Program-made: the position numbers and the translations under genes
Virus genome (UHGV): UHGV-1497419
Origin: a virus
Direction: 5' to 3' (one strand)
Length of the DNA stretch: 64,000 bases
The notes under the pieces: model-generated
Seen by the model: the letters and a program-made list of their open reading frames with translations, nothing else
What the model was told of the DNA's origin: nothing
Databases searched by the model: none
Shown: piece by piece, positions 612 through 63,907 of the stretch
Layout of the letters: every line of letters starts with the position of its first letter
How positions within the stretch are numbered: the first letter of the stretch is position 1

Positions 612-2978
612 TTAATCGTAAATTGTAGTCCCTTCTGGAACACATTTTACATCAAAGCCTAAGAACTTACTCACTTCGATGGGTGACACTTTATTCCAAT
701 CTAAATGAGAAAGCAAGAAGTTTTCTTGTTTTCTTTTTGAAAGGTAGTTTGTCACCTTAATGACCATACGGTCACCAGCTTTCTTAATTTTCTTGTACAG
801 CTTTGTATCATTGTCAAGGCATTCTTTCAAAGTTTGCAATCTACTAACAGTGTAAGTGTATGCAAACGGTGCAGCAACGTATTGGATTTTACCGAACATT
901 GCCTCTACAGCCTCTTCATTACCTTCTAGGAAGATAGTTTTGTTTGTATCCCGTGAATAGCAATAACCACGAGAAATCTTCCTATTATTGAATGTAAAGT
1001 TTCTGGCAATAATCCAGCTACTTGTAAGGTCAAGAACACCATTCATGTAGATGCGTGTCATATACCTGTTATGATTAATCCAATGAACATCAGTTAAGCT
1101 GTCGTTCAAGAGCTTCTCATCTACTTCAATCCAGTCTTCTGGTATCTTTTTCCAATTTGCTTTTCGGAAAACATAGACTGTCTTTCCAATAACATTAGCA
1201 ACTGACTTAGCTACATCTTCTGGGGATGAGCAAAAACATTCACCATCAACTGTGTCACCAATTGCCTTAATGTAAAGCTGAGGTTCTTCAATTGTGTCTA
1301 AGTCCTCTGACACCTCTTTGTAGGAGGCTACACCTTCTGCTGGAACAGCTTTCCAGAGTTTTACAACACCTCTTACAGCTTCTTTACGCTGGTAATGGTG
1401 TTCCTTATCAGACATTTTCACAATCTTTAACAAGCTTTTATCAAGTTTGTGTAGATTGATTAAATCATCTAACTCTTTTTCAGTCGAGAATACAAACACA
1501 ATACCATTATATCTGTGAAACAGACTGGACTCACTGGCGTAGTCTCGACATGCACCACGCAGAATCTGATTGCGTCCTACAGTCTTCTCAGTTCCGTTTT
1601 TATTGCGACGGTCATTAATCACGAACAAAAACTGTTCAATTTGGCTTTTACGCATTGCACCAAAGATATTGAACATACTTGCCTCTTGAGTGTAGGAAAG
1701 TGCTGTTGCACGAATCTTACTCTCTAAAGAGTTGAACTTAACATAAGCAACTGGGTTATAAAGATAATCTACTTTAGGAATGTTGTTTCCGTTCCTATCA
1801 ACCTTAATATTACCTTTACCGTCACGTTCATAAATAACTGAGCCGTCTTCTGCGTAGATAATCCCACGACGAATGTTTAGCAATTCTTCTTCCAGAGAAT
1901 CAAGCTTAACACCGCCCCACTCTAGCTTTGGACACACAGCATTAAACATCTCTCGTGAGTTCAAACGTAACTCAGCATAAGCCTGTGCAGCATCCATGAG
2001 TGTAGGTTGGTTATTAACTTTCTTGATAACATCCTTTGTAATGGCTTCAGTTATCTTTTTGGTAGCCTCAATGATGACATTTTTTGTCGTATCATTCATC
2101 TGCAATGCTTCACGAGAAGCTGCAATAGCAACTGAACCAATAGGCATGTAGATGTTTACAAGGTCTACGCTCCTACGGAAAAATTCTGGCAATACTTTGA
2201 AGAAATCATCACCAAGTAATGCTTCCATGTTAACAGGGTAGGCAATGTTACCCATCACCACATTAAACTCTGTCCTGTTATCACTAGAACGCCAGCTTAG
2301 CTTATGAATCATGGCATCATAAACACCCTCTTCACGGGCAATGACGTTCATATCTGCTAATACATCGTTGTACACAATATTACTTTCTGGTTTTACAGCA
2401 AAGTATGAGTATACATTACCAGCTTCTTCAAAGAACTTTGAGATACGGTGGTCAGCAACTGCCACACGTACAGCTAAACCATTAGGTTCTTTTGTTGGGT
2501 TAGTTGTCAGCTTAGTTACTTGAGGAATACCATTCTCAAGATAAACAGAGTACTTATTAACAACACCATCAACATAGCTAGATACTGTGAATGACTGAGC
2601 AATTGCAAATGGTGACTTTGAGCCGATACCCATTGCACCAATGTAATCATTAGAGTCATTCTTCGTAGAAGCTCCGTAGTTCAGATACAAACTCATTACT
2701 TTGTCATGGGTTAAACCAGTTCCAAAGTCACGGACTTCAAAGTAAGGCTCAAACCGAGTAGGTAAATGCACATGGAACGGGATGTTCTCTTTTCCAGCTT
2801 CTTTCTGAGCATCTACTGCGTTACATGACAGTTCACGAATAACTGCCCTTTCTTTAAATGTGTATACACCAGAACTCAAAAGGCTGAACATTTCAGGTGT
2901 CATTGTAATCTGTGCTTGAGACGTCTCTAAAGAAGTTGAACTCTTAATCACTTCTGCGTGGTCGTTTACCATGCGCAT
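612..2978 (-). CDS. rIIA: rIIA-like membrane-associated protein with GHKL-type ATPase N-terminus
   Basis: 788 aa; blocks ERAVIRELSCNAVDAQ, RDFGTGL, SNDYIGAMGIGSKSPF and SVAIAASREALQMND match what I recall of T4 rIIA (N-box and G-box of a histidine-kinase-like ATPase). Confidence 0.75.
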   Translation of the reverse strand: MRMVNDHAEVIKSSTSLETSQAQITMTPEMFSLLSSGVYTFKERAVIRELSCNAVDAQKEAGKENIPFHVHLPTRFEPYFEVRDFGTGLTHDKVMSLYLNYGASTKNDSNDYIGAMGIGSKSPFAIAQSFTVSSYVDGVVNKYSVYLENGIPQVTKLTTNPTKEPNGLAVRVAVADHRISKFFEEAGNVYSYFAVKPESNIVYNDVLADMNVIAREEGVYDAMIHKLSWRSSDNRTEFNVVMGNIAYPVNMEALLGDDFFKVLPEFFRRSVDLVNIYMPIGSVAIAASREALQMNDTTKNVIIEATKKITEAITKDVIKKVNNQPTLMDAAQAYAELRLNSREMFNAVCPKLEWGGVKLDSLEEELLNIRRGIIYAEDGSVIYERDGKGNIKVDRNGNNIPKVDYLYNPVAYVKFNSLESKIRATALSYTQEASMFNIFGAMRKSQIEQFLFVINDRRNKNGTEKTVGRNQILRGACRDYASESSLFHRYNGIVFVFSTEKELDDLINLHKLDKSLLKIVKMSDKEHHYQRKEAVRGVVKLWKAVPAEGVASYKEVSEDLDTIEEPQLYIKAIGDTVDGECFCSSPEDVAKSVANVIGKTVYVFRKANWKKIPEDWIEVDEKLLNDSLTDVHWINHNRYMTRIYMNGVLDLTSSWIIARNFTFNNRKISRGYCYSRDTNKTIFLEGNEEAVEAMFGKIQYVAAPFAYTYTVSRLQTLKECLDNDTKLYKKIKKAGDRMVIKVTNYLSKRKQENFLLSHLDWNKVSPIEVSKFLGFDVKCVPEGTTIYD

Positions 2979-3010
2979 AATACTTTCCTCTTAGTTTACT
3001 GTTAAATCAC

Positions 3011-3183
3011 TTATTAAACATTTTACCAGAACCACCACAAATAGGGCAACAACCTGCTCTTGTATACCCTTCTCCGTTACAGTAGTCACACTTTTTGTGT
3101 TCTGCAAAGTACTTACAAAGAAGGCAAACAAATATTGCTACACTACCAAGTGACAGTAAAATTTCTATCCAATACGCTTGCAT
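3011..3183 (-). CDS. Small membrane protein with C-terminal CxxC...CxxC zinc ribbon
   Basis: Manual translation MQAYWIEILLSLGSVAIFVCLLCKYFAEHKKCDYCNGEGYTRAGCCPICGGSGKMFNK; below the 60-aa cutoff of the ORF track. Confidence 0.3.
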
Positions 3184-3500
3184 GACTCACCTCTCATATT
3201 CTTGTAAAGGATAAAGCTTCTGTCATGGACGATACTTGTAGACACTGCAAAGTTACTTTCAAGCATCTGTTTGTTTGGATTGTAGAAGCTTTCTTTAAAC
3301 TCGTCAAGTGCAAATTGGTGATGTTGCGGAAGACCTTTTACACAGACCTTTATTGTGATTGCTGCTGCGACCTTGCCAGTCAGTTCTTCTTGAGCTGCTA
3401 CCAAGATTTTGTTAAGGAACTTATGACCATCTTCAGGCTTCTTGATGTTCTCCCAACGTTCTTCTAAGACAATGTTGATGTTCATCTCTTTGATTTTCAT
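3165..3500 (-). CDS. Hypothetical protein
   Basis: 111-aa ORF co-oriented with flanking genes. Confidence 0.4.
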   Translation of the reverse strand: MKIKEMNINIVLEERWENIKKPEDGHKFLNKILVAAQEELTGKVAAAITIKVCVKGLPQHHQFALDEFKESFYNPNKQMLESNFAVSTSIVHDRSFILYKNMRGESCKRIG

Positions 3501-3522
3501 AGTTTTCTCCAGAAATTAAAAA

Positions 3523-3538
3523 GGCTCCCGTAGGAGCC
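3523..3538 (-). terminator. Rho-independent terminator downstream of NAMPT-like gene
   Basis: GGCTCC-CGTA-GGAGCC hairpin followed by a U-run on the minus transcript. Confidence 0.55.
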
Positions 3539-3553
3539 TCTTATCATATACTT

Positions 3554-5335
3554 TTAAAGCTGCTTGTCAATATTATTTCGAATATCCCCAAGAGTTGTGT
3601 AACCGAACTGCTCAGAGTCACTAAAGACTAAACGTAAGGCACAAGCTGGGTGGTCAAGTACATCTGCAAAACTCTGGAATCCATAGCCATCTATAGCTTT
3701 CAGCTTGTCACCATCCCACATAGGTGCTACACCACCAAAGGCAGATTTCTTAACACCACTATCTGTTTTAGGGTCTTTTGCAAGCATAATCTCTTTACCA
3801 CCAATGCTTGCAAGAGTTGCTTTGACAGCAAATGCAAAGGTGTCACGAGTCATGTACTGGTAAGTGTAAGAACCTACGCCAAACACTACGTTAGAGCTTG
3901 CAAAACCCATTTCATACAGACGCTTCAGGATTTCGTTTGCACGTTCCAGTGTGATAGAGTCACCATAGATAAGGCCGATGTGCTCATCCAGTACCTTAAA
4001 CCCTTTAGAGTTAACAGTTCCCCCAAAGATGTTGTACAGCGTCTTAATAGCTCCATCAATCTCCGCTACAGGACGTGTTACAACGTTTGCAGAACCAACC
4101 ATATAAGCATTCTTCAGCAGTACTGTATCAGCAACTTCAAAGTCTTCTCTGTCAACAACCATTTCGTAGCCTTCTGACAGTAGCCATCCAGCAATACCAT
4201 AGTTAATGTTTTCAAGCTTCATGTTCAGGACAGAGTTCAGCATTGTATCACTTGCCTCCAGCTTGCTTAGGTGTTCGTAATAAGCCTTCTTAGCACACTC
4301 TAAGTGGATTGCTTTATAACCTGTGACAATATGTACAGGGTCTCCAGAGTCAGGGCGAATTACCAGTTTACCATCACGTTCCATAATTTCTTTACGGAGT
4401 GCTGGTAAGATTTCTGACACAGTTCTCCAGAAGTTATAAGTATCTGAAACAATGCTTGCAATACCAGTTGGGTAAGTTTCTGTTAAGAAACGACGGAAGG
4501 TTTGCAACTCACCTTTAAAACGTCTTTCTTCTTCAATCAATTCGTTACCGCCTTCCCAAGCAATGTTTGCACACATTACAGAGTGTTCAGTGGCTGGTAC
4601 AGAGCTACCAATATCAGAGATTGGGTAAGACTGTCCATAGATTCGTTTAGCCGTATACACAGCAGGGAAGCTATCAGTTCCTTTAAAGCTGGTTAAGTGA
4701 CCTACAGCGTTAAATGCGTCATCAGTAAAGCCGGACATACCACGCATAGCAAAGTCATGGCACTGATAAGGTAAATGTAAGTCGTTGTCGCAAGTAAGGT
4801 CAGCCCACTTCTTACAGATACGTTTATAATGCAATGCAATAGTTGCAATGGTACAAGCCTTCCAAATCTCAGCAGAGAAAGCATCCTCCAGATACCCCGC
4901 TACCCAATGGAAACCTGAAACAGTGTTCTGGAAGACAATCATTGGGACACGCATAGGGACAACTGTACCTTCTTCTACAGCGTATACTTCAACTGGTAGA
5001 TAACCTAAGTCGTGAAGTGCTTCCCAATGCTCTCGACCGATAGCATCTTTACCCAGAACACCATTCATGACTTCTAAGATTTCATCAATGGCTTCTTTTT
5101 TATCACGTTCAAAGAAAGTGGCGTTCCAGTGGTCTATCAAGTAATCTTTAACGAAACGTTGAATACCAAAAGCCACTACACCATCAATTGCTAAGGGGCT
5201 GTTAAACCATTTGTCACTACGTGGTGTCAGGTTGAACATCAAATACTCTGTTGCACTAGGATACTGGTAAACATGACCAGATTTGTAAGCATCTGCGTTT
5301 AAACCTGCTGGTACTGCATAAAGTGATTTAGTCAT
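3554..5335 (-). CDS. Nicotinamide phosphoribosyltransferase-like enzyme (NadV/NAMPT family; possibly a Namat-type nicotinamide ADP-ribose transferase)
   Basis: 593 aa; N-terminal DAYKSGHVYQYP matches the NAMPT DSYKVTHYKQYP signature; C-terminal GLIYGDSI...VVFGVGSYTYQ block. Confidence 0.8.
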   Translation of the reverse strand: MTKSLYAVPAGLNADAYKSGHVYQYPSATEYLMFNLTPRSDKWFNSPLAIDGVVAFGIQRFVKDYLIDHWNATFFERDKKEAIDEILEVMNGVLGKDAIGREHWEALHDLGYLPVEVYAVEEGTVVPMRVPMIVFQNTVSGFHWVAGYLEDAFSAEIWKACTIATIALHYKRICKKWADLTCDNDLHLPYQCHDFAMRGMSGFTDDAFNAVGHLTSFKGTDSFPAVYTAKRIYGQSYPISDIGSSVPATEHSVMCANIAWEGGNELIEEERRFKGELQTFRRFLTETYPTGIASIVSDTYNFWRTVSEILPALRKEIMERDGKLVIRPDSGDPVHIVTGYKAIHLECAKKAYYEHLSKLEASDTMLNSVLNMKLENINYGIAGWLLSEGYEMVVDREDFEVADTVLLKNAYMVGSANVVTRPVAEIDGAIKTLYNIFGGTVNSKGFKVLDEHIGLIYGDSITLERANEILKRLYEMGFASSNVVFGVGSYTYQYMTRDTFAFAVKATLASIGGKEIMLAKDPKTDSGVKKSAFGGVAPMWDGDKLKAIDGYGFQSFADVLDHPACALRLVFSDSEQFGYTTLGDIRNNIDKQL

Positions 5336-5357
5336 CTTTTAATCTCTCTCTCAAAAT

Positions 5358-5373
5358 GGGGCTTTTAAGCCCC
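5358..5373 (-). terminator. Hairpin GGGGCTTTTAAGCCCC between prs-like and NAMPT-like genes
   Basis: Perfect stem plus U-run on the minus transcript; possible attenuator inside the two-gene unit. Confidence 0.45.
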
Positions 5374-5382
5374 TATAAACTT

Positions 5383-6279
5383 TCAATCAAGGTTTGCTAC
5401 AGTAACTTGACTGTAATGTGTTAAGCCACGGTCTTTAGCTTCGCCTAAAGAGTTTGTAGTGTAAATATGGTCGATACCATTGTCAAGAAGGTTTTCAACA
5501 TCTTTAGAGAAGATACCATGTGTTACATAAAGTTCCACACGTTTTGCACCTGCTTCACGAAGATGCTTCGCTGCTTCTATGAAGGTTCGACCACCATCAC
5601 AGATATCATCCAGAATCATGACGGTTTTATCTGTCAAATCAACATCATCAAGGATTCGCATACTAGTAATTTCACCAGTCTTAAGGTTACGCACTTTAGA
5701 CATTGTGATGTATGGTTTATCCACCTCTTTAGCAGTCTCTGCAATCTTCTTAGCAGCACCTGCATCTGGGGCTACTAAGTAATCAATCAGTGGGTCATTT
5801 GCATAGTGGACTGCAATTTCCTTTTGAGGAATACTCTGGAAGCAGTTAAACAGGTTATCTGGTACATAGCTGTGAGGGTCAACTGCACAGACTGCATCAA
5901 AACCCATTGCATTAACCTGTTGTGCAAACACTTTCAAAGCTGCTGCATCACCTTTAAACATGTGACGGTCGTAACGTGCATTTGGCAAATAGTAAAAGAT
6001 AGCAGTCTTCATAGCAAACTTATGAGGTACTAAATCATCAATTGCTTCTTTAGCAAGTGCCACAGCAAACAATGTGTCCTTATCATAACCTTTTACAATC
6101 ATAATCACATTGTTGATAGATGATGCTGCATAAGCAGTAAAATCAACAAACTCTGGCGAAAAGTGTCCACCAATCTCACCAGAAGGGAATTGGACGATGT
6201 TAAACTCTTCTTCATGAGTCCCTTTAGTTGGTGAATGAACTGTAACACGGATAGATGTTTTCATAGTTTTCTCTCTCAA
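5383..6279 (-). CDS. Ribose-phosphate pyrophosphokinase-like enzyme (PRPP synthetase family; possibly an Adps-type ADP-ribose pyrophosphokinase)
   Basis: 298 aa; PRTase-type motif VMILDDICDGGRT and overall Prs-like layout. Confidence 0.7.
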   Translation of the reverse strand: MREKTMKTSIRVTVHSPTKGTHEEEFNIVQFPSGEIGGHFSPEFVDFTAYAASSINNVIMIVKGYDKDTLFAVALAKEAIDDLVPHKFAMKTAIFYYLPNARYDRHMFKGDAAALKVFAQQVNAMGFDAVCAVDPHSYVPDNLFNCFQSIPQKEIAVHYANDPLIDYLVAPDAGAAKKIAETAKEVDKPYITMSKVRNLKTGEITSMRILDDVDLTDKTVMILDDICDGGRTFIEAAKHLREAGAKRVELYVTHGIFSKDVENLLDNGIDHIYTTNSLGEAKDRGLTHYSQVTVANLD

Positions 6280-6554
6280 TCAAAAGTTACGTTTGTTACT
6301 GCCATTGCAGATTTGCATTTTGCAGGGTCTACAACGTGATAAAGTACACTACAGTTACCTGTGCTGTCTGGTACAGGCTTTACCCATTGCTGCTTTATAG
6401 TTGGCTCTCCTAAGTCTTTGTAAGAGCCATCTGTAAAGTTGTTTACCATCTCAAGTGCAATTGGTTCTGGAACATGACCGCGTATCATGTACATCTCACA
6501 ACCATTACCACATTCACTGACTAATGGTAAAATCTCCCACTTCTCTTTAGCCAT
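6276..6554 (-). CDS. Hypothetical protein
   Basis: 92-aa ORF, start overlaps upstream gene stop. Confidence 0.4.
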   Translation of the reverse strand: MAKEKWEILPLVSECGNGCEMYMIRGHVPEPIALEMVNNFTDGSYKDLGEPTIKQQWVKPVPDSTGNCSVLYHVVDPAKCKSAMAVTNVTFD

Positions 6555-7062
6555 TGTAAGTTGCCCTATAAACTGTCTCGAACTTCAACAGGAGAGATAT
6601 TGCCAAATCTGTATAGTTGTTGTCAAGCACATCTGGCATATTATTTTTGATATATTTCTCTTGCTCTTCATAGGTCATCTTAGGGATGCTTAGAAGACTA
6701 TCACCTTGATTCTGATTATCAAGTTTAGTCTGGATAAACCAGTTTGCACAGTGATGCTCACCACCCTTTGTAACAGGTTTGTGGTGGCCTAATGTGAAGG
6801 ATTGACTACCTGTGTATCTGCAAAGTTTATTGAGCACTGTAATGGTGTTCTTCACAACAAAACATTCATACAGGTTGTCTATGGTGTAGTATGGGTAATA
6901 TCGGAATAATGCTCTTTCACGAGTACTCTCACGATTCCAGAGAATCATGTGATTGGAGTTGGAAGGGTCATATTGGTGGAAGTCAATGAACTCTTGACGT
7001 TCCTCAAAGCTGAGCCTTAACACTGACATTGCAGCCGAACGTTTCAGGTTTGACAGGTACAT
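6547..7062 (-). CDS. Hypothetical protein
   Basis: 171-aa ORF, co-oriented. Confidence 0.4.
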   Translation of the reverse strand: MYLSNLKRSAAMSVLRLSFEERQEFIDFHQYDPSNSNHMILWNRESTRERALFRYYPYYTIDNLYECFVVKNTITVLNKLCRYTGSQSFTLGHHKPVTKGGEHHCANWFIQTKLDNQNQGDSLLSIPKMTYEEQEKYIKNNMPDVLDNNYTDLAISLLLKFETVYRATYNG

Positions 7063-7113
7063 ATTATCTCCAAAATAAAAAGGGAACCTTTACAGTTCCC
7101 TAATCATAGACTC

Positions 7114-7425
7114 TTACTGAACTAATTTCAATACTTTGAAGAAACCTTCTTCACCAATTGCATCATAGACCTTTTCAGTTGGCTTGATAAGGTTGTTCAA
7201 GCAGATTATTTTCTTACGTTTCTTATCATAAGAAAGTTTAAGCTGCTTCAGCTCTTTATCATCTTCAGGGTGCTCATTGTACATCTTTACAGCCTCTTTG
7301 AAGCTAATGTAACCGCCGCCAAGAGTAAGGAAACCTGTGCCACAATAATGTGAATTGTGCTTATCAGCCATAAACTGACACAGAATAGAAATCTGAATTT
7401 TACGGGTGTTATAAATCTTTTCCAT
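7114..7425 (-). CDS. Hypothetical protein
   Basis: 103-aa ORF. Confidence 0.4.
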   Translation of the reverse strand: MEKIYNTRKIQISILCQFMADKHNSHYCGTGFLTLGGGYISFKEAVKMYNEHPEDDKELKQLKLSYDKKRKKIICLNNLIKPTEKVYDAIGEEGFFKVLKLVQ

Positions 7426-9284: not shown

Positions 9285-11429
9285 TTACATAGATACTCTA
9301 TCACGAATCTCAGCGATTTTTGCATCGTTCATTCGGGATTCACCTTTAATCTTAGTCCATCCCAGATATCCGCACACCCTGTTAATCACAGAGATATCAT
9401 GTGAATGACAAACCTCACATTCTTCAACATCAGCCTTTGGTCTGTTACCACAATGTTCACAGATTGCTAAGTCAAAGTTAAGCCCCTGATAGAAACCTTT
9501 CAACATCCCTCTTGTAATACAACTTTTAAGTGCTGTTAAGTTTTCTGGGTTAGCTACCCTGACATACTGGATTCTCCCACCTCTACAGATATGGAAGAAT
9601 GGCTCTTCTAAGTCCTGCTTCTCAAATGGTGAGATGTCTGCTGCAACATTCATATGGAAACTGTTTGTAAAGTATTCCTTATCAGAAACACCTTTGATAA
9701 CGCCAAACATATCTCTGAACTGTTTTAGCTGAGTTCCGCAAAGTGATTCTGCTGGAGTACCATAGACGGCATATAAGAAGCCATCTTCATTTTTAAACTC
9801 TTCAGTTTTCATGTTGATGTATGCCAGAACATCGTATGCAAAACTACAGCTTCCAACTTCATGAAGTCGTTTACCTTCAGCAAGAACAGATAGCTCATCA
9901 AGCGCAGTAACACCAAAAGAAGCTGTGAAGGACTTCACAATATCCCAACCAACCTTGTCAGTAGGTTTCTTAGTTCCTTTGTACAGACCACCTTGTGTAA
10001 ATGCAAGAGGGTTAGAACTTGCTGGCATATTAGCAATCATTTCGTAACGTTTCTTGTGGAAACTACGAATCATCTCTAGGTACTTATCAAGCTCTGTCCA
10101 GAAATCTAAACCATTCTCTTTAGAATACTGGTAAATCATTGGTAAGTTCAAAGATACAGCACCAATATTAGCACGACCAACGTAGAACTCTTCTCCATTC
10201 TCGTTAAGATATGGGGATAAGAAAGCTCTGCAACCCATCGGTGAAATTACCTTGCCAGAACGCTCAAAAGCCTCTGCTACAGCACCATGACCAGATACAC
10301 TTAAAAAATCTGGATACATCGCTTTAGAGCAACACTCAATAGCTTTGCTGTACAGTTGGCCTTGACAGATATTCTCATCGTGTCTCTTCTGGTCATGAAT
10401 ATAAACCAGTTTAGGGAATACAACAGGCTTCTTACTCTTACCTTGTCCATTCATGCGAACATCAAGAATGGTGTTTGCAATCATGTATTGCAGTCGGTTG
10501 TCTTCATTAGACATATCTGAGTCAAGTAATCCAAATGTCAAAGTTGTAAATGCAAAATCACCACGGCTACAAGGTACAGTATTTAGTTTCATTTCGAGTG
10601 ACTGGAAACCCTGAGTTAATTCAAGCTGTAGCTGCTCCATGACATAATTGTGGTAATGTTCTTTAGGAATACCGTAAGATGCTGCTTTCTCAGCATGGTA
10701 GCGTAGAGACTTTTTAGCATACGGTACAAGCACCTTATCAATCTCTGCTAAAGTAAATCCACCAAATTGCTGTGCAGTTGCTGAAAGAACTACATCACCA
10801 ATAACCTGTAAGGCTGACAGCACAGACTTCGGTTCACAGTATTCGATGCCAGACATCTCAAAGCCACCTTTCAGTACTTTACCAATGTCAAACAAGCAAC
10901 AGTTAATGCCGCCAAAAATCAGGTCTCTTAAATCGTGGATATAGATAAACCCTTTTTCAATGGCTTCAAGTTCCTCTGGTGTTAAATGGTACTGCTTAAA
11001 GATTTCTTTAGTCAGGTAACCACGAATAATTGAACCTTTTGTAGAAATTAAACTGCTGTCAAAGTTAGCGTTTTCACGGTCACCTAAGAAGAGCGTGTCT
11101 CTAGTCTTTTGGTAAAGCTCATCCCAATTTTGAGCAACCTCTTTCCGGTAATTTCTATATGTTGAGTAAGACTCATAAATCTCGTGATTGACTTCTGCCA
11201 AAGCACCCTCAACAATGCTGTGAATATCATTGACTGAGATGAGTAAATTATTCTGCTTAGTGGACTTTACCAGAATCCTCATAAATGCTGACTCAAGAGC
11301 TTGGGTAACATCTGGTGGGAGTTCTTTATATCCAACCCTGTTAGCTGACTTAGTTACTGCTGCTAAAACTTTTTTGATATCAGGTTCTTCAAGTGAGCCA
11401 TTCTTTTTAATAATCTGTACTTTGTTCAT
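9285..11429 (-). CDS. nrdD: Anaerobic ribonucleoside-triphosphate reductase (class III)
   Basis: 714 aa; C-terminal CEHCG...CEVC zinc site and glycine-radical motif RVCGYLG. Confidence 0.9.
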   Translation of the reverse strand: MNKVQIIKKNGSLEEPDIKKVLAAVTKSANRVGYKELPPDVTQALESAFMRILVKSTKQNNLLISVNDIHSIVEGALAEVNHEIYESYSTYRNYRKEVAQNWDELYQKTRDTLFLGDRENANFDSSLISTKGSIIRGYLTKEIFKQYHLTPEELEAIEKGFIYIHDLRDLIFGGINCCLFDIGKVLKGGFEMSGIEYCEPKSVLSALQVIGDVVLSATAQQFGGFTLAEIDKVLVPYAKKSLRYHAEKAASYGIPKEHYHNYVMEQLQLELTQGFQSLEMKLNTVPCSRGDFAFTTLTFGLLDSDMSNEDNRLQYMIANTILDVRMNGQGKSKKPVVFPKLVYIHDQKRHDENICQGQLYSKAIECCSKAMYPDFLSVSGHGAVAEAFERSGKVISPMGCRAFLSPYLNENGEEFYVGRANIGAVSLNLPMIYQYSKENGLDFWTELDKYLEMIRSFHKKRYEMIANMPASSNPLAFTQGGLYKGTKKPTDKVGWDIVKSFTASFGVTALDELSVLAEGKRLHEVGSCSFAYDVLAYINMKTEEFKNEDGFLYAVYGTPAESLCGTQLKQFRDMFGVIKGVSDKEYFTNSFHMNVAADISPFEKQDLEEPFFHICRGGRIQYVRVANPENLTALKSCITRGMLKGFYQGLNFDLAICEHCGNRPKADVEECEVCHSHDISVINRVCGYLGWTKIKGESRMNDAKIAEIRDRVSM

Positions 11430-59021: not shown

Positions 59022-59097
59022 TGGAGAATCCGAAGGGACTCGAACCCTTATAAACCTGTTTTGCAGACAGGCACATAGCCATTTCTGTCACGGATTC
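59022..59097 (-). tRNA. tRNA-Cys (anticodon GCA)
   Basis: Manual cloverleaf: acceptor GAAUCCG/CGGAUUC, anticodon loop CUGCAAA, T-arm AAGGG-UUCGAGU-CCCUU, CCA encoded. Confidence 0.7.
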
Positions 59098-59101
59098 AAA
59101 T

Positions 59102-59194
59102 TGGAGGAAGATACCAGACTTGAACTGGTACACCGATTTCTCAGCTACTGGCAGTTTAGCAAACTGCTCCCTTACCTTTTAGGGTTAATCTTCC
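59102..59194 (-). tRNA. tRNA-Ser (anticodon GCU), long variable arm
   Basis: Acceptor GGAAGAU/AUCUUCC, anticodon loop UUGCUAA, long variable arm, T-loop UUCAAGU; 93 nt. Confidence 0.65.
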
Positions 59195-59196
59195 AT

Positions 59197-59931
59197 TTAT
59201 TTCTGTAATGCGCTCTTCATTTCTGGTGTTGCAATAGTGTCAATCACACCAGTTTTACAGGCATCATCAAACCAGTCTGGTAAGATACCTGCTAAGAACC
59301 CATTGATATTCGTTTTAAGGTACTCTGCAATAAGGGCAGCTTCTTCTTCAATCATCTGCACAACTTCATCTGCATAAGCTGTAATCTTTGAAATACCTTC
59401 ATTAATCTTACTAACAGCCTGATTAGCTAAATCAGAAACAGTATCAAGACCCTTATCAATAGCATCTTGCAAGTCACTTAACACACCATTAACACTATCT
59501 AGTGTACTGTTCATCATGTCAATAGCTTTTTGACCATACTCTGTAGCAACACCCATGATACCACTGAATGGTGTACAACCAACTTGTTCTCCTGCTGCAC
59601 CCATAACATTGGAATACCCCTTTGCTACCTGCATACGTGATGAAAACTCATCAATAGACTTTTGACCGTAGTCTGTCAGAGTTTTAGTAGTTGCTGTAGT
59701 GCTTGTAAGGCTTGTTGTAAAGCTGTTTAGAAGGACTGTTGTAAGTCCAGCAGCAACAAGTTTCTCCTTCATTGTAGGGTCTGTTACAGAACTAATAGAG
59801 CTTACAAGTGATGTAGAAGCAGCTACGGTTCCACCGAGAACTGCTGCACCAGTAATAAGTGGGTTAGAGAACCCTTTACCGGTTTTTAAGAGATTAAAAA
59901 TCTCCTTACCTTGTTCTGTCATCTCTTTCAT
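59197..59931 (-). CDS. Hypothetical Ser/Thr/Ala-rich protein embedded in tRNA cluster
   Basis: Track ORF trimmed to the ATG behind AAGGTG so it does not overlap tRNA-Phe. Confidence 0.35.
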   Translation of the reverse strand: MKEMTEQGKEIFNLLKTGKGFSNPLITGAAVLGGTVAASTSLVSSISSVTDPTMKEKLVAAGLTTVLLNSFTTSLTSTTATTKTLTDYGQKSIDEFSSRMQVAKGYSNVMGAAGEQVGCTPFSGIMGVATEYGQKAIDMMNSTLDSVNGVLSDLQDAIDKGLDTVSDLANQAVSKINEGISKITAYADEVVQMIEEEAALIAEYLKTNINGFLAGILPDWFDDACKTGVIDTIATPEMKSALQK

Positions 59932-59947
59932 TAAGCACCTTTGAAAT

Positions 59948-60024
59948 TGGTAGTCCAGTGGGATTTGAACCCTCTTCTCATGTTTTTCAGACACGCGCTT
60001 TAACCATATAAGCTACTTGGACTA
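59948..60024 (-). tRNA. tRNA-Phe (anticodon GAA)
   Basis: Acceptor UAGUCCA/UGGACUA, anticodon loop CUGAAAA, T-loop UUCAAAU. Confidence 0.65.
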
Positions 60025-60029
60025 TAAAT

Positions 60030-60105
60030 TGGGGTGACCTACGGGATTTGAACCCGTATAGACCATGTTCACAGCATGGGTCATTACCATTTATGATAAG
60101 GCCAC
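60030..60105 (-). tRNA. tRNA-His (anticodon GUG)
   Basis: Acceptor GUGGCCU/AGGUCAC, anticodon stem CCAUG/CAUGG, loop CUGUGAA. Confidence 0.7.
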
Positions 60106-60136
60106 ATTTAAGGACTCTCGCAAGAATCCTTAGAAG

Positions 60137-60212
60137 TGGCAGCGGCATAAGGATTTGAACCTTAATAGGACAGCTTCAGAGGCTGCTGCATTGCCAGTTA
60201 TGCTATACCGCT
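60137..60212 (-). tRNA. tRNA-Gln (anticodon CUG)
   Basis: Standard 76-nt cloverleaf; anticodon loop UCUGAAG gives CUG at positions 34-36. Confidence 0.6.
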
Positions 60213-60217
60213 AAATT

Positions 60218-60296
60218 TGGTACTCCATATCGGATTCGAACCGATACATAACACAGATTTTAAGTCTGGCCTCTCTGCCAATTGGAGTAATGGAGC
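60218..60296 (-). tRNA. tRNA, class I length, anticodon read as UAA (isotype uncertain)
   Basis: Clear acceptor stem and T-arm (AUCGG-UUCGAAU-CCGAU); best anticodon loop CUUAAAA; no long variable arm expected of tRNA-Leu. Confidence 0.45.
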
Positions 60297-60298
60297 AT

Positions 60299-60374
60299 TG
60301 GCGGGGGATGTTGGAATTGAACCAACTTCTTCGATTTCAAAGACCGAGGTTTTAACCTTGTAAACTAATCCCCT
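60299..60374 (-). tRNA. tRNA-Gln (anticodon UUG), with A1-C72 mismatch
   Basis: Anticodon stem UCGGU/AUCGA, loop CUUUGAA, T-loop UUCAAUU. Confidence 0.55.
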
Positions 60375-60382
60375 TTAAATCT

Positions 60383-60940
60383 TTACTTTCTCAGTGGATG
60401 AATAAAGAATGCCAACATAACTCTTTCCCTTGAGAATGCTCTTTCTTCTGGGACAACACTTTTTAGTTTCCATCCAATATAAATTCTCCAGTAAAATTGT
60501 TTACCAAAGATTTTAATTGATGGGATAAAAGCGAATAATCCCCAAGCATTACTGTTCCACATTAGGAGATAACCTGTCTGATTATCTTCGGGGTCAGAAC
60601 TTACGTTGATATTACCTTTCCACTTAGTAACATCTTTTACATCTCTTCCTAATACATGGTAAGAGAAGTTATAAGCTTTGTTTCTCCAGAGCCATCCAAC
60701 TCTCTGCATGTAGACACCTAGCTTACCAATCTTTCTAATCTTAGCCCATCTTTTAACGTGGCCTTCATCACCATCAATCGGGTTGTCATAGGTCTCCATC
60801 CATCTGAATCCAAAAGGTAGATGTCCTTTCTTCTCACTGTAGAATGGAACTACGAAAGGTGCTAAGATGACTGCTATGGTTGCTGCAAATGGTTCTAACA
60901 AAGCTAAGAAAATCCATGAAACATATTTTAAGTATCTCAT
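60383..60940 (-). CDS. Hypothetical membrane protein within tRNA cluster
   Basis: 185 aa; hydrophobic N-terminal segments; GAGGG ribosome-binding site. Confidence 0.35.
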   Translation of the reverse strand: MRYLKYVSWIFLALLEPFAATIAVILAPFVVPFYSEKKGHLPFGFRWMETYDNPIDGDEGHVKRWAKIRKIGKLGVYMQRVGWLWRNKAYNFSYHVLGRDVKDVTKWKGNINVSSDPEDNQTGYLLMWNSNAWGLFAFIPSIKIFGKQFYWRIYIGWKLKSVVPEERAFSRERVMLAFFIHPLRK

Positions 60941-61179
60941 TGTCTAACCCTCGTAAGGAGGTAAGCATTATTATTTGTTTCTGAGCTTTCTGGTAACATT
61001 GTCTCAAAATTGATGCTTTTAAGTTGTCTTCCACCAAAGCAATGACCAATAAATCTTTCTACTTTTATTGGGTCGCATTCCCATCCGACTTTCAAGAAAA
61101 TGTGGGTATCTATAGTGGGAACCCTTACAAACTCAATACTATTGGGATTTTCATGTTCAACGACGATTAATGTTTGCAT
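60937..61179 (-). CDS. Hypothetical protein within tRNA cluster
   Basis: 80 aa; AAGAGGAA ribosome-binding site. Confidence 0.3.
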   Translation of the reverse strand: MQTLIVVEHENPNSIEFVRVPTIDTHIFLKVGWECDPIKVERFIGHCFGGRQLKSINFETMLPESSETNNNAYLLTRVRQ

Positions 61180-61197
61180 AAATTCCTCTTGCTTATC

Positions 61198-61273
61198 TGG
61201 CGCAGGATAAGGGATTCGAACCCCTATTAACAGCTTCGTAGACTGTTGCTCTATCCATTTGAACTAATCCTGC
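61198..61273 (-). tRNA. tRNA-Arg (anticodon ACG)
   Basis: Acceptor GCAGGAU/AUCCUGC, anticodon stem ACAGU/GCUGU, loop CUACGAA. Confidence 0.7.
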
Positions 61274-61278
61274 AAAAT

Positions 61279-61356
61279 TGGTGTTCCAAGACGGATTCGA
61301 ACCGTCACTAGTACAAGGTTTGAGCTTGCATCCTCTGCCAATTGGGATACTGGAAC
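61279..61356 (-). tRNA. tRNA, class I length, anticodon read as CAA (isotype uncertain)
   Basis: Acceptor and T-arm (GACGG-UUCGAAU-CCGUC) are clear; anticodon stem GCAAG/CUUGU with loop CUCAAAC. Confidence 0.45.
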
Positions 61357-61357
61357 A

Positions 61358-61432
61358 TGGTACTCACTAAAGGACTTGAACCTTTTTCTTCATCTTGTAA
61401 GGGTGATGTTTTACCATATAAACTAAGCGAGT
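61358..61432 (-). tRNA. tRNA-Val (anticodon UAC)
   Basis: Standard cloverleaf: D-stem GUUU/AAAC, anticodon loop CUUACAA, T-arm AAAGG-UUCAAGU-CCUUU. Confidence 0.6.
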
Positions 61433-61528
61433 ATGAAAGAGGTCTGAAGTTGTGCCGCTAACTCAACTCCGTGGAATTTGTTACGGTCTTCAGTTGACTC
61501 AAAGCGGTCTTTCACTTGACCTCTGAAT

Positions 61529-61605
61529 TGGTGCTGCTCACAGGACTCGAACCTGCATTTCCATCCTTACAAGGGATGTGTAATAGCCAATTATACGAAA
61601 GCAGC
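61529..61605 (-). tRNA. tRNA-Thr (anticodon UGU)
   Basis: Acceptor GCUGCUU/GAGCAGC, anticodon stem CAUCC/GGAUG, loop CUUGUAA. Confidence 0.7.
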
Positions 61606-61611
61606 ATTGTT

Positions 61612-61686
61612 TGGAGCATCCAGAGGGAATCGAACCCTCAACCTCAGTTTGGAAGACTGTAATTTTCCCGTTTAAACTATGGATGC
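61612..61686 (-). tRNA. tRNA-Gly (anticodon UCC)
   Basis: Acceptor GCAUCCA/UGGAUGC, anticodon loop CUUCCAA, T-arm GAGGG-UUCGAUU-CCCUC. Confidence 0.6.
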
Positions 61687-61692
61687 ACTAAT

Positions 61693-61768
61693 TGGTGGAG
61701 AAGCAGGGAATTGAACCCTGTACTTAAGTTTGCAAAACTTATGTTTTAACCATGTAAACTACATCCCC
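61693..61768 (-). tRNA. tRNA-Ala (anticodon UGC)
   Basis: Anticodon stem UAAGU/ACUUA, loop UUUGCAA; G3-U70 wobble pair in the acceptor stem, the Ala identity element. Confidence 0.65.
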
Positions 61769-61774
61769 AATGTT

Positions 61775-61850
61775 TGGTACAGGTGGAGGGAATTGAACCC
61801 ATCGTCTTACTGATTAAGAGTCAGCCGCATAACCATTTTGCTACACCTGC
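61775..61850 (-). tRNA. tRNA-Lys (anticodon CUU)
   Basis: Anticodon stem GCUGA/UCAGU, loop CUCUUAA. Confidence 0.6.
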
Positions 61851-61857
61851 ATTAATT

Positions 61858-61935
61858 TGGTAGGAGACAAGGGATTCGAACCCTCAAACACCAACTTCTA
61901 AGGATGGTAGGTTTACCAATTACCGTCAATCTCCC
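61858..61935 (-). tRNA. tRNA, class I length, anticodon read as UAG (isotype uncertain)
   Basis: Acceptor GGGAGAU/GUCUCCU, T-loop UUCGAAU, anticodon loop CUUAGAA; D-arm irregular. Confidence 0.4.
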
Positions 61936-62190
61936 ATTAAATCTTTTTAGAGAACTTCTAAGAACCTAAGCAACAAGGTTCCACAACAAGCTGTAATAAC
62001 CTTAGAAGCCCTCTAAAAAGACCTAAAAAGGTCTTTGCATAGTCTTGTTTAATCCGGTGACTAGAACCTTTGGAGAGCTTGATATTATCTCTTCTCCGTG
62101 ACACCTACTAGGTGCTTTATCAGTGTGTACGACAATACACGCGGGATACCAAAGCGACATCCGAATGAAGCTTGGCTTTAAATCTTATTA

Positions 62191-62280
62191 GGCGGTAAGT
62201 AAAGGAGTCGAACCCTCACCGTATCTCTACAGTGGCAACAGTTTTCAAGACTGTTTGGCTGCCATTAGCCGCTACCTACC
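62191..62280 (-). tRNA. tRNA-Ser (anticodon UGA), long variable arm, CCA not fully encoded
   Basis: Acceptor GGUAGGU/ACUUACC, anticodon stem ACAGU/ACUGU, loop CUUGAAA, long variable arm, T-loop UUCGACU. Confidence 0.55.
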
Positions 62281-62293
62281 CCTAATAAGACTT

Positions 62294-62376
62294 TGGCATG
62301 GGACGGAGGAGTTGAACCCCTTTGAAACGGTTTTGGAGGCCGTTGCTCATGCCTTAGAGTCTTAACATCGTCCCAT
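62294..62376 (-). tRNA. tRNA-like gene, possibly tRNA-Trp (anticodon CCA) with expanded D-loop
   Basis: Acceptor AUGGGAC/GUCCCAU and CCA end are clear; best anticodon loop CUCCAAA; D region about 7 nt longer than canonical. Confidence 0.4.
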
Positions 62377-62518
62377 ACTATAATTCGAAGCTTACCGTAT
62401 TATCTCAACACTGTAAAGCCCCTTCTCAGATTATTTACATGTTCTGGAAAACATGAGATACAGACCACCTCCCTACACGGAGACCCACTAAGGTCGTCTA
62501 AGTAATCTGCTAACTAAT

Positions 62519-62595
62519 TGGCACACCCTACAGGATTCGAACCTGTAACTAACGATTTAGAAGACCGTTGCTCTATCCAATTGAACTAAGGGTGC
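62519..62595 (-). tRNA. tRNA-Arg (anticodon UCU)
   Basis: Acceptor GCACCCU/AGGGUGU, anticodon stem ACGGU/AUCGU, loop CUUCUAA. Confidence 0.7.
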
Positions 62596-62887
62596 ATTAA
62601 TCTTTAAAGACTCTCTTAGAAAGCCCTTAAAGATGCCCACCTTATTAATCATACCGTGGGCTAGTACGCCAAATTCTTTGATGAGGGATTGGAAGACCTC
62701 ACTGGTGTTTAGCCTATCAAGCTACTGCCAGAAAAACATTGTCGTTTGCATTTATTTTAAATTTGCAAAATAGACGCTACGCAACGAAAACTATTCAGAA
62801 TATGTACAACAAATTTCCCCACATTGTGTTACGTCTAACGCTCATGTATTGGTGTTTGAATTATACATATTATGAAGTATTTTAGTT

Positions 62888-62916
62888 ACTATAAAATAGT
62901 CACATCTCAGTGTCAA
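62888..62916 (-). promoter_or_regulatory. Sigma70-like promoter inside tRNA cluster
   Basis: Minus strand reads TTGACA - 17 nt - TATAGT; transcript would include a ~280-nt leader and tRNA-Arg(UCU). Confidence 0.5.
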
Positions 62917-62931
62917 CAACTTTATTGAAAT

Positions 62932-63007
62932 TGGTACTGGTAGGTGGAATCGAACCACCGATGTTCCCTTATCAGGGGAGTGTTATAACCTTCTTAACTA
63001 TACCAGC
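62932..63007 (-). tRNA. tRNA-Ile (anticodon GAU)
   Basis: Acceptor GCUGGUA/UACCAGU, anticodon loop CUGAUAA, T-arm GGUGG-UUCGAUU-CCACC. Confidence 0.65.
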
Positions 63008-63008
63008 T

Positions 63009-63085
63009 TGGAGGTTCAGATGGGAATCGAACCCACATTCATAGGGCTTATGAGACCCTTGCATTACCTTATCTGCGACTGAACC
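63009..63085 (-). tRNA. tRNA-Met (anticodon CAU; initiator, elongator or Ile-lysidine not distinguished)
   Basis: Acceptor GGUUCAG/CUGAACC, anticodon stem AGGGU/GCCCU, loop CUCAUAA. Confidence 0.65.
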
Positions 63086-63089
63086 ATTT

Positions 63090-63165
63090 TGGTAGAAGTG
63101 GAGGGATTCGAACCCATCGCCTGTCAGATTAAAAGTCTGCCGCATCACCATTCTGCTACACTTCC
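63090..63165 (-). tRNA. tRNA-Lys (anticodon UUU)
   Basis: Acceptor GGAAGUG/CACUUCU, anticodon loop CUUUUAA. Confidence 0.65.
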
Positions 63166-63172
63166 ATTAAAT

Positions 63173-63307
63173 TATCTTTGTAGATAAGCTACCCAGACTT
63201 GCTTAAGGTCTGTAGCGATGTGTCTTTTCGGGTTAAATCTAGAATCCACCCTTCACCTTTGTGGTCGCATACTCACAGGGAAGCTTAATAACTTATCTAC
63301 AAAGATA
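63173..63307. repeat. Perfect 16-bp inverted repeat pair (TATCTTTGTAGATAAG / CTTATCTACAAAGATA) separated by 103 bp
   Basis: Exact reverse complements at 63173-63188 and 63292-63307, each followed by CCAGAC; no ORF or tRNA between them. Confidence 0.6.
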
Positions 63308-63360
63308 ATTACCAGACCGTTGTTTATCATCTTAAGTGCTACCATTACACCAACTCGACA

Positions 63361-63404
63361 TCTGCCGAGTGAAGGAATCGAACCTTCGCCTTTTCTTTAC
63401 CGAG
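63361..63404 (-). pseudogene. tRNA 3'-half remnant (T-arm plus acceptor 3' strand without matching 5' half)
   Basis: Perfect T-arm GAAGG-UUCGAUU-CCUUC then ACUCGGC, but no complementary 5' acceptor strand or anticodon arm upstream. Confidence 0.35.
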
Positions 63405-63422
63405 AAATATATTGTTTAAGTT

Positions 63423-63450
63423 TTGCTGTAAACGGTCTTCTGTAAATTTG
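63423..63450. repeat. 28-nt motif TTGCTGTAAACGGTCTTCTGTAAATTTG, copy 1
   Basis: Identical to 63965-63992; a partial variant lies at 63507-63531. Confidence 0.6.
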
Positions 63451-63590
63451 TTGAGCCAGACCAAGTTTTAAATTTTTCAAAATTAAATTGGCTTGAAATT
63501 TTAAGTAACTTGCTGTATTTGGTCTTCTGCTCCTTTAAAGAATACTCGTAAGAACTCTTTAAGGGAGGGGCTAAATAGCCCTCTCAAAAT

Positions 63591-63668
63591 TGGCGGTTAC
63601 GAAGGGATTTGAACCCTCATCATCTCCCGTGACAGGGGAGTATTTTAACCAAATTAAACTACATAACC
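63591..63668 (-). tRNA. tRNA-Asp (anticodon GUC)
   Basis: Acceptor GGUUAUG/CGUAACC, anticodon stem CUCCC/GGGAG, loop CUGUCAC. Confidence 0.7.
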
Positions 63669-63673
63669 TTTAT

Positions 63674-63761
63674 TGGTGTGCCGTGTAGGAGTCGAACCTA
63701 CCGAGTCTCAATGACAAGGGATTTACAGTCCCCACCGCTACCATCTACGGGATAACGACAC
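63674..63761 (-). tRNA. tRNA-Tyr (anticodon GUA), long variable arm
   Basis: Anticodon stem GGGGA/UCCCU, loop CUGUAAA, long variable arm, T-arm GUAGG-UUCGACU-CCUAC. Confidence 0.6.
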
Positions 63762-63830
63762 ATTTAATTTCTATTCAGGCTAAGGACTTGCACCTTACAA
63801 ATCGGTGAGCAATCGCTTCTCTCCTAAATT

Positions 63831-63907
63831 TGGCGGTTAGTCAGGGATTCGAACCCTGTGCCATTCGCTTAACAGGCGACCGCACATACCTTATGTGCTT
63901 CCTAACC
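63831..63907 (-). tRNA. tRNA-Asn (anticodon GUU)
   Basis: D-stem GCAC/GUGC, anticodon loop CUGUUAA, T-arm CAGGG-UUCGAAU-CCCUG. Confidence 0.6.

Follow-up and report, generated by a model that had tools for sequence, protein, structure and literature searches.

Adjacent Prs-like and NAMPT-like genes of a Felixounavirus as a probable minimal NARP1 anti-defence operon

Two neighbouring genes in a 64,000-nucleotide stretch of viral DNA (UHGV-1497419, referred to as a whole as the window) encode a Prs-like and a NAMPT-like protein, and their pairing raises the question of which route to NAD+ they serve. In classical salvage the Prs-like protein would supply PRPP, with which the NAMPT-like protein would turn nicotinamide into NMN, and NAD+ synthesis would be completed by the host through an NMN adenylyltransferase or deamidase route (NadR or PncC). 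The original prediction preferred a pathway of the type of NARP1 (NAD+ reconstitution pathway 1), which was discovered by deletion and metabolomics in an operon of phage Bas63 (Osterman et al., bioRxiv 10.1101/2024.02.11.579819). That preference is supported by orthology to Bas63 gp79 and gp80 (79% and 99% identity, respectively) and by the published specificity and catalytic residues, together with a Namat-like fold and the absence of an NMNAT among the 72 window ORFs scanned. On this basis the two genes are very probably a minimal, two-gene NARP1 anti-defence operon of Felixounavirus, and they are called here adps and namat.

Arrangement of the locus

The window DNA is that of a Felixounavirus. 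Both genes lie on the minus strand, the Prs-like gene being upstream in the direction of transcription and separated from the NAMPT-like gene, which opens with ATG, by a spacer of 47 nt that holds no gene (Table 1). The coordinates, order and strand originally given for the pair all stand, but the length of 298 aa given for the Prs-like protein is that of a mechanical open reading frame (5383..6279) read from a TTG. No Shine-Dalgarno-like sequence accompanies this TTG, at 6279, which overlaps the stop of the gene before it; the ATG at 6264 is preceded by GAGAGAG and gives a product of the length annotated for Bas63_0079. The ATG is therefore probably the real start, and the coding sequence is likely to be the shorter one listed in Table 1. 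The pairing itself is not due to chance, since 230 phage records cover 80% or more of the same 4.1-kb segment. The operon adjoins nrdG, nrdD, nrdB, nrdA and other nucleotide-metabolism genes.

Table 1. Features of the adps-namat locus, in window positions
Feature	Position	Strand	Basis or remark
adps: ADP-ribose pyrophosphokinase (ADPR-PP synthetase), 293 aa (probable start)	5383..6264	-	ORF and orthology
namat: nicotinamide ADP-ribose transferase, 593 aa	3554..5335	-	ORF and orthology
GAGAGAG, ribosome-binding-site-like motif upstream of adps ATG	6271..6277	-	read from sequence
Intercistronic hairpin GGGGCU-UAAA-AGCCCC, then AUUUU	5358..5373	-	within the 47-nt adps-namat spacer
GAGAGAGAG, ribosome-binding-site-like motif 8 nt upstream of namat ATG	5344..5352	-	read from sequence
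Part of namat encoding insertion 2 (residues about 341-427)	4055..4315	-	absent from SpβL1 Namat and Nampts
Terminator-like hairpin, 10 pairs then T-run	3519..3542	-	terminator scan; 12 nt past namat stop

The GGGGC hairpin that had been noticed between the two genes is real. The 71 nt around it (5325..5395) fold with an energy of -14.3 kcal/mol (z = -2.3 against shuffled sequences), and it is kept in Bas63 with a single A-to-G substitution in the loop. The terminator scan passed over this hairpin because its T-run was below threshold, and it may act as a weak attenuator or mRNA-stability element. The hairpin that the scan did call beyond namat is probably the 3' end of the transcription unit, and one transcript ending there may carry all four genes between 7062 and 3554.

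The closest published relative of the locus is that of Bas63 (Escherichia phage JohannRWettstein, accession MZ501086), which belongs to the same genus and has the same gene order and flanks (gp77-gp78-adps-namat...rIIA). Orthologues of gp77 and gp78 are present in the window (96% and 99% identical), and the ribosome-binding-site-like motifs of adps and namat are the same in both phages. Namat is identical to Bas63_0080 (gp80) at 586 of 593 residues. The two loci differ in Adps, which matches Bas63_0079 (gp79) at 232 of 293 residues and that of phage Ro111lw at 99.7%. The divergence from Bas63 falls mainly within 6312..5813, approximately the first half of adps, where nucleotide identity is only 66-78%; two adps alleles occur in the genus and the window carries the commoner one. 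Its departure from the genetically tested Bas63 allele counts against the NARP1 reading. A further difference is the 345-nt gene Bas63_0081, which lies downstream of namat in Bas63 and has no counterpart in the window.

Specificity signatures and fold of the two proteins

The assignment of the proteins to the NAMPT and Prs families, as first proposed, holds with Pfam, NCBIfam and PHROG. Namat matches Pfam NAPRTase and NAMPT_N, NCBIfam NF006629 (469 bits against a cut-off of 405) and PHROG 448; Adps matches Pfam Pribosyltran and Pribosyl_synth, TIGR01251 and PHROG 619. The passing of the NF006629 and TIGR01251 cut-offs, with the generic annotation that follows from it, is a point in favour of classical salvage, as is the use of the corresponding enzyme names in database records. 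Against this, Adps passes only the broad subfamily model TIGR01251 (128.7 against 113 bits) and falls far below every NCBIfam PRPS equivalog cut-off, the best being NF002095 (106.7 against 296 bits); with the subfamily model NF002320 (PRK01259) it reaches 94.7 against 297 bits.

An active-site comparison, which the original prediction had put forward as one means of deciding, finds in each protein the published signatures that set Namat apart from Nampt and Adps apart from PRPS. The published sequence rule for Namat combines a GSXΦXΦXΦTRD motif (SCH) with a clamp loop (SCL) that has Arg, Lys or Tyr at its third position and provides an adenine-stacking residue, which in Bas63 is the fourth. 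In the window Namat the first of these is G488-S-Y-T-Y-Q-Y-M-T-R-D498, with Y490 and Y494, and the second is S40-D41-K42-W43, identical in Bas63, in which K42-W43 provide the Lys and the stacking residue. The presence of these residues, associated with a preference for ADPR-PP, argues against classical salvage. The Nampt/NadV enzymes, including that of NARP2 (KVP40), HdNadV (9KE8), Xcc Nampt (7YQO) and human NAMPT, share the fold and the nicotinamide/ribose-phosphate core of the window Namat, but they have no aromatic residue at SCH positions 3 and 7; in the solved Nampts the corresponding stretch is GAQTYQRNTRD (HdNadV) or GGALLQKVDRD (Xcc), without the Namat features. The phage Nampts are moreover paired with an NMNAT, whereas the window Namat is paired with a Prs-like gene.

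The catalytic core of Namat (D15, Y17, F195, R198, D221, H251, R327 and D329) was defined by reference to SpβL1 Namat (D13, Y15, F189, R192, D215, the catalytic His, R306 and D308) and is invariant across 38 homologues. An AF2 model of Namat (pLDDT 93.3) has as its best fold match in the PDB the SpβL1 Namat crystal structure (9W5X/9W5W; TM 0.95 on target). SpβL1 Namat has the same fold and catalytic residues at 38% identity, and its SCH motif is GSFTYQYNTRD as against GSYTYQYMTRD. It differs in its clamp-loop stacking residue, which is Arg40 where the window protein has Lys42-Trp43, and in being about 100 aa shorter.

This difference in length bears on the earlier remark that the NAMPT-like protein is some 100 aa longer than typical NAMPTs, which is correct and is accounted for by two insertions relative to Namats of 488-497 aa: one of +14 aa near residues 258-275 and one of +72-76 aa near residues 340-427. 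Both are absent from SpβL1 Namat and present in Bas63. The second is a small α/β domain, confidently folded in the model, that sits just after the RPDSGDP catalytic strand; an insertion domain of this kind (75-90 aa) is present in all long Namats of the Ounavirinae type, and no fold or family relative of it was detected in Pfam, the PDB or BFVD. Pairs lacking the insertions are found on chromosomes of Enterobacteriaceae (e.g. Klebsiella michiganensis, L006), where a 289-aa Prs-like gene is adjacent to one for a Namat-like protein of 496 aa with the motif GSFTYQYNTRD, and where the pair adjoins a divergently oriented gene for an NrtR-type Nudix regulator. Bacterial NARP1 homologues have been reported to be active (PMC12774641).

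For Adps the published rule consists of a DDICDG loop and a missing C-terminal module. The loop is kept in the window protein, and the α11-α12 filament/regulatory module of PRPS is missing (293 aa where E. coli Prs has 315, the alignment showing a gap of 20 columns at this position). ICP1 Adps (PMC13586617), the sequence of which was taken from GenBank for the alignment, likewise has a PRPS-like fold, the DDICDG loop and no α11-α12, and its residues R87, H121, D161, K185, D212, D213, C215 and D216 are conserved as R97, H131, D167, K190, D219, D220, C222 and D223. The two proteins are only 32% identical, and within the PP loop the window has CDGGRT where ICP1 has CDGAAS. The adenine-stacking F18 and F92 of ICP1 align to H17 and M102 (F103 being adjacent), a register that is uncertain because of the low identity, and neither these nor the lid residue F223 are conserved at the aligned positions. 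A PDB search, in which no Adps entry was present, gave Sulfolobus PRPS (4TWB) as the best match.

Published activities and the alternative routes

The chemistry and the anti-defence phenotype ascribed to the operon are taken from published orthologues and homologues, and the window Namat and Adps allele would be expected to behave as these do. A host NAD+-depleting effector (e.g. SIR2-HerA, Thoeris type I, DSR1/2 or SEFIR) would cleave NAD+ to ADP-ribose and nicotinamide. Adps, with its PRPS fold, would then form ADPR-PP by moving the β,γ-pyrophosphate of ATP onto the distal ribose of ADP-ribose, and Namat, with its Nampt fold, would replace the pyrophosphate by nicotinamide to yield NAD+ directly, with neither an NMN intermediate nor an NMNAT. 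Preference for ADPR-PP over PRPP would come from an adenine-stacking clamp formed by Trp43 of one subunit and by Tyr490 and Tyr494 beside the TRD motif.

Deletion of genes 79-80 of Bas63 sensitised the phage to SIR2-HerA and lowered NAD+, the effect of the operon persisted in a ΔpncC ΔnadR host, and ADPR-PP was seen only when operon and defence system were both present (bioRxiv 10.1101/2024.02.11.579819). In an independent screen the plating of Bas63 Δg79 or Δg80 on Sir2-HerA cells fell by 10^4-10^6 and was rescued by complementation. Since the Bas63 protein purified poorly, the in vitro data were obtained with the homologues of SpβL1 and ICP1. Purified SpβL1 Adps formed ADPR-PP from ADPR and gave no measurable product in a PRPS-type assay, for which the figure legend names ribose-5-phosphate and the running text 'PRPP'. 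Namat homologues retain the ability to convert PRPP to NMN in vitro, so that some classical salvage is possible; when Namat was offered both donors, however, NAD+ was the sole product. Taken with the function of the orthologous operon in a host lacking PncC and NadR and its formation of ADPR-PP in vivo, these findings make classical salvage a highly improbable account of the pair.

The Bas63 data bear also on the suggestion that the pair serves chiefly to enlarge the pools of PRPP and pyridine nucleotides for the synthesis of phage DNA and has no role in immunity. The position of the operon beside the nrd genes would suit such a function, but in Bas63 both ADPR-PP and the phenotype appear only under an NAD+-depleting defence, there is no excess of NAD+ otherwise, and the deletion mutants are viable on hosts without defence systems. 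We regard this suggestion as scarcely credible.

A NARP1 operon could be accompanied by further enzymes, and variants are known from other phages in which a NAMPT-like protein works with a phage NMNAT (NARP2) or NARP1 is extended by an ADPR-1''-phosphate phosphatase (NARP1-AP) or an RyR-domain cADPR glycosidase. Small proteins of unassigned function do flank the operon here (92 aa upstream; 111 aa and 58 aa downstream). In Pfam scans of 72 window ORFs, however, the matches listed (in one of the scans, 25 of the 27 matched families) include no family of the NMNAT (CTP_transf_like), Nudix, Macro or RyR type, which upholds the initial statement that no NMNAT was recognised in the window. No Macro phosphatase or RyR partner was found by Pfam in the flanking ORFs or between adps and namat. 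The approximately 23 kb of the approximately 87-kb genome that lie outside the window were judged only via the annotation of Bas63, and the part of that annotation examined lists no NMNAT. In the discovery paper NARP1 and NARP2 were never found together in one phage (bioRxiv 10.1101/2024.02.11.579819). NARP2 or an extended pathway is accordingly extremely improbable, and the NARP1 of the window is the two-gene form, without a Macro phosphatase or RyR partner. The 92-aa protein was rejected as a conserved accessory, since it does not resemble its 98-aa positional counterpart in phage SB18; a 171-aa protein, although conserved (44% identity), is tied by published work to a different defence system.

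Consequences for annotation and host range

The operon is a Felix-O1-type copy of the published NARP1. The exact phage lineage is that of the published type example, so that the NARP1 reading is right without being new. It accounts for everything except the insertion domain and the divergent N-terminal allele of Adps. It is conceivable, though rather doubtful, that insertion 2 is a functional add-on (e.g. regulatory, Adps-docking or inhibitor-evading) and that the divergent allele was selected by a NARP1-targeting host factor.

Public records mislabel both genes, nearly all those of related phages giving 'ribose-phosphate pyrophosphokinase' and 'nicotinamide/nicotinate phosphoribosyltransferase'. 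NCBIfam would give the same mislabels, whereas the published sequence rules identify NARP1. This matters for phage therapy and for the prediction of host range. The phage is expected not to resist aRES, because that system yields ADPR-1''-phosphate, which calls for an additional phosphatase not found here; it would be expected to resist defences that release ADP-ribose, such as SIR2-HerA, Thoeris I, DSR1/2 and SEFIR.

The NARP1 operon and its Bas63 orthologue

The adjacent Prs-like and NAMPT-like genes, adps and namat, were found on the minus strand as originally described, and both family assignments were confirmed by Pfam, NCBIfam and PHROG scans. NARP1 was discovered through deletion of genes 79-80 in the BASEL phage Bas63 (JohannRWettstein), a Felixounavirus; SIR2-HerA restricts phage that lack them, and NAD+ is then not maintained; escape of wild-type Bas63 persists when the host is ΔpncC ΔnadR; and ADPR-PP is seen only with the operon and the defence system both present (bioRxiv 10.1101/2024.02.11.579819). 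In an independent knockout screen, Bas63 Δg79 or Δg80 plating fell by 10^4-10^6 on Sir2-HerA cells and was rescued by complementation. The window NAMPT-like protein is identical to Bas63_0080 at 586 of 593 positions, and the Prs-like protein to Bas63_0079 at 232 of 293 (79%). A classical Prs/NadV salvage reading is contradicted by the published genetics on this near-identical operon, itself the published NARP1, and the original prediction of NARP1 from gene composition was correct. Judged by sequence and by this orthology, the pair is NARP1 by mechanism and membership, in the lineage where NARP1 was defined. The system is thus already known, and its remaining interest lies in an unexplained Namat insertion domain and in Adps allele dimorphism.

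Positions of the operon, its signals and neighbouring features in the window
Feature	Position	Strand	Description
adps (Prs-like ORF)	5383..6279	minus	298 aa counted from TTG
namat (NAMPT-like ORF)	3554..5335	minus	593 aa
Intercistronic hairpin	5358..5373	minus	GGGGCU-UAAA-AGCCCC, then AUUUU; within 47-nt adps-namat spacer
Strong terminator-like hairpin	3542..3519	minus	directly past namat (terminator scan)
Terminator-like hairpin	7101..7081	minus	upstream of 171-aa gene
Promoter-like site	7131..7103	minus	immediately upstream of 7101..7081 hairpin
Sigma-70-like promoter match	3570..3543	minus	11/12, TTGACA-16-TATGAT
171-aa ORF	6547..7062	minus	
788-aa ORF	612..2978	minus	
NrdD gene	9285..11429	minus	714 aa
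tRNA genes	59022..63907	minus	23, clustered, small ORFs interspersed

Because the TTG of adps has no ribosome-binding site (it overlaps the stop codon of the preceding gene), and because an ATG at 6264 is preceded by GAGAGAG and would yield a protein of 293 aa, as annotated for the Bas63 orthologue, the true coding sequence is probably 5383..6264. The GGGGC hairpin noted between the genes is kept in Bas63 with a single substitution, in the loop. The surrounding 71 nt (5325..5395) fold at -14.3 kcal/mol (z = -2.3), and the terminator scan did not call this hairpin, its T-run being under threshold. Terminator-like hairpins at both ends and the upstream promoter-like site suggest that the stretch from about 7062 to 3554 is transcribed as one unit. 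The sigma-70-like match overlaps the namat 3' end and abuts the hairpin beyond it; this promoter-then-terminator order (3519..3570) is an odd arrangement.

Adps and Namat compared with characterised enzymes

The active-site comparison proposed as a check agreed with NARP1 for Namat and for the acceptor and catalytic residues of Adps. Crystal structures of SpβL1 Namat (PDB 9W5W/9W5X) were used in a published study to define a ‘selectivity clamp’, whose motif GSFTYQYNTRD appears in the window protein as GSYTYQYMTRD (residues 488-498); the same position reads GAQTYQRNTRD in Haemophilus ducreyi NadV (HdNadV; 9KE8) and GGALLQKVDRD in Xanthomonas Nampt (7YQO). The clamp loop, S40-D-K42-W43, has the Lys-plus-next-residue arrangement described for Bas63 Namat. 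Core residues D15, Y17, F195, R198, D221, H251, R327 and D329 are all retained, with no variation across 38 homologues. The closest folds to the AlphaFold2 model (pLDDT 93.3) are the Namat crystal structures (TM 0.95 on target), with HdNadV and human NAMPT ranking behind them.

An alignment of Adps with E. coli Prs and the ICP1 enzyme, whose structure is known, showed conservation of the acceptor and catalytic residues R97, H131, D167, K190 (the catalytic-hairpin lysine) and D219/D220, and of the DDICDG start of the PP loop. The C-terminal α11-α12 module of PRPS is missing, an absence taken as a defining signature of the Adps family by the ICP1 Adps authors (PMC13586617). Where ICP1 Adps has its two adenine-stacking phenylalanines, the alignment places H17 and M102 of the window protein, the latter next to F103; at 32% identity this placement is tentative. 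Window Adps lies far under every NCBIfam PRPS equivalog cut-off.

The extra length of about 100 aa noted for the NAMPT-like protein is real and comprises two insertions relative to Namats of 488-497 aa, one of 14 aa near residues 258-275 and one of 72-76 aa near residues 340-427, immediately after the RPDSGDP strand. Bas63 Namat has both, as do long Namats with as little as 45% identity, among them proteins annotated from Shigella phage Silverhawkium, Escherichia phage phiSUSP1, Yersinia phage vB_YenM_P778, Pectobacterium phage Arno162 and Salmonella phage vB_SenM_SB18; in other lineages unrelated insertions occupy the same site. The large insertion is modelled confidently as a small α/β domain (pLDDT 92-97 in context, 86 alone). 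In the SpβL1 structure paper the word ‘insertion’ does not occur and this domain is not described, though Bas63 Namat is aligned there; it is the sole undescribed element found in this analysis.

Phage lineage, alleles and flanking genes

A 4.1-kb region matched 258 phage records (230 of them covering 80% or more of it), nearly all Felixounavirus phages of Escherichia, Salmonella, Shigella and Citrobacter, the top match being vB_EcoM-Ro111lw (96.7% identity). A 25-kb structural and replication segment found the same relatives at about 95%. These matches identify the window, at the sequence level, as a Felix-O1-type myovirus genome distinct from every record matched.

Within the genus, tblastn separated two Adps allele groups, one with about 155 records at more than 90% identity to that of the window, the other with about 85 records at 60-80%; Bas63 Adps, the allele tested genetically, falls in the latter and so differs from that of the window. 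In 100-nt sliding windows, identity to Bas63 is 96-100% in gp78, drops to 66-78% over 6312..5813 (minus), from the adps start codon on, and rises again, to about 90% towards the 3' end of adps and 94-99% across most of namat. Such a pattern points to a recombination mosaic whose centre is the Adps N-terminal domain, approximately the 5' half of the gene.

The flanks are syntenic with Bas63. The upstream 171-aa and 92-aa genes are 96% and 99% identical to gp77 and gp78, and the downstream 111-aa, 58-aa and 788-aa ORFs share lengths and order with Bas63_0082, Bas63_0083 and Bas63_0084, the last annotated rIIA. Bas63 differs in that namat is followed by a 345-nt gene, bas63_0081, before the 111-aa gene is reached; at this place the window has only a 53-nt spacer (3500..3554). 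Its nrdD is annotated as a join of two pieces enclosing a homing-endonuclease gene, whereas that of the window is a single uninterrupted ORF. Bas63 gp77 is described as GIY-YIG in a knockout screen that reports it to counter retron Ec67; the 171-aa ORF gave no GIY-YIG match; it shows only weak similarity to an HNH-endonuclease PHROG (E 6e-4) and carries an HH...N-like motif. In phage SB18 a homologue 44% identical to it sits two genes upstream of Adps (locus L005, 1863..2375). Bas63 rIIA and rIIB (g84, g85) are reported counters to QatABCD defence. From the roles reported in Bas63, 612..7062 would be a cluster of counter-defence genes comprising gp77, NARP1 and rIIA.

Forms of NARP1

The more distant vB_SenM_SB18 operon (Namat 46% identical to that of the window) has a 165-aa HNH/AP2 homing-endonuclease gene between adps and namat (L005 3493..3990). 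A Klebsiella michiganensis chromosome (locus L006, 3211..6491) carries paired 289-aa Prs-like and 496-aa Namat-like genes, with the GSFTYQYNTRD motif, beside a divergently oriented NrtR-type Nudix/winged-helix regulator gene, an arrangement suggesting that a regulator of NAD metabolism controls this bacterial NARP1-like pair. Both window proteins match a single PHROG profile, phrog_12872 (547 positions; Adps 52-224, Namat 236-534), which suggests that some phages encode Adps and Namat as one fused protein.

A Pfam scan of 72 window ORFs (all those of 120 aa or longer outside nested frames, and most small ones) found no NMNAT (CTP_transf_like), Nudix, Macro or RyR family member in these 64 kb, about 23 kb of the genome lying outside, in agreement with the earlier failure to recognise an NMN adenylyltransferase. 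NARP2 (Nampt and Nmnat), the extended NARP1-AP with its Macro phosphatase and RyDEP-associated NARP1 were rejected on these absences, and by its gene content the operon is classed as a minimal two-gene NARP1. aRES leaves a phosphate on ADPR, and by published logic the two-gene NARP1 of the window should fail against it.
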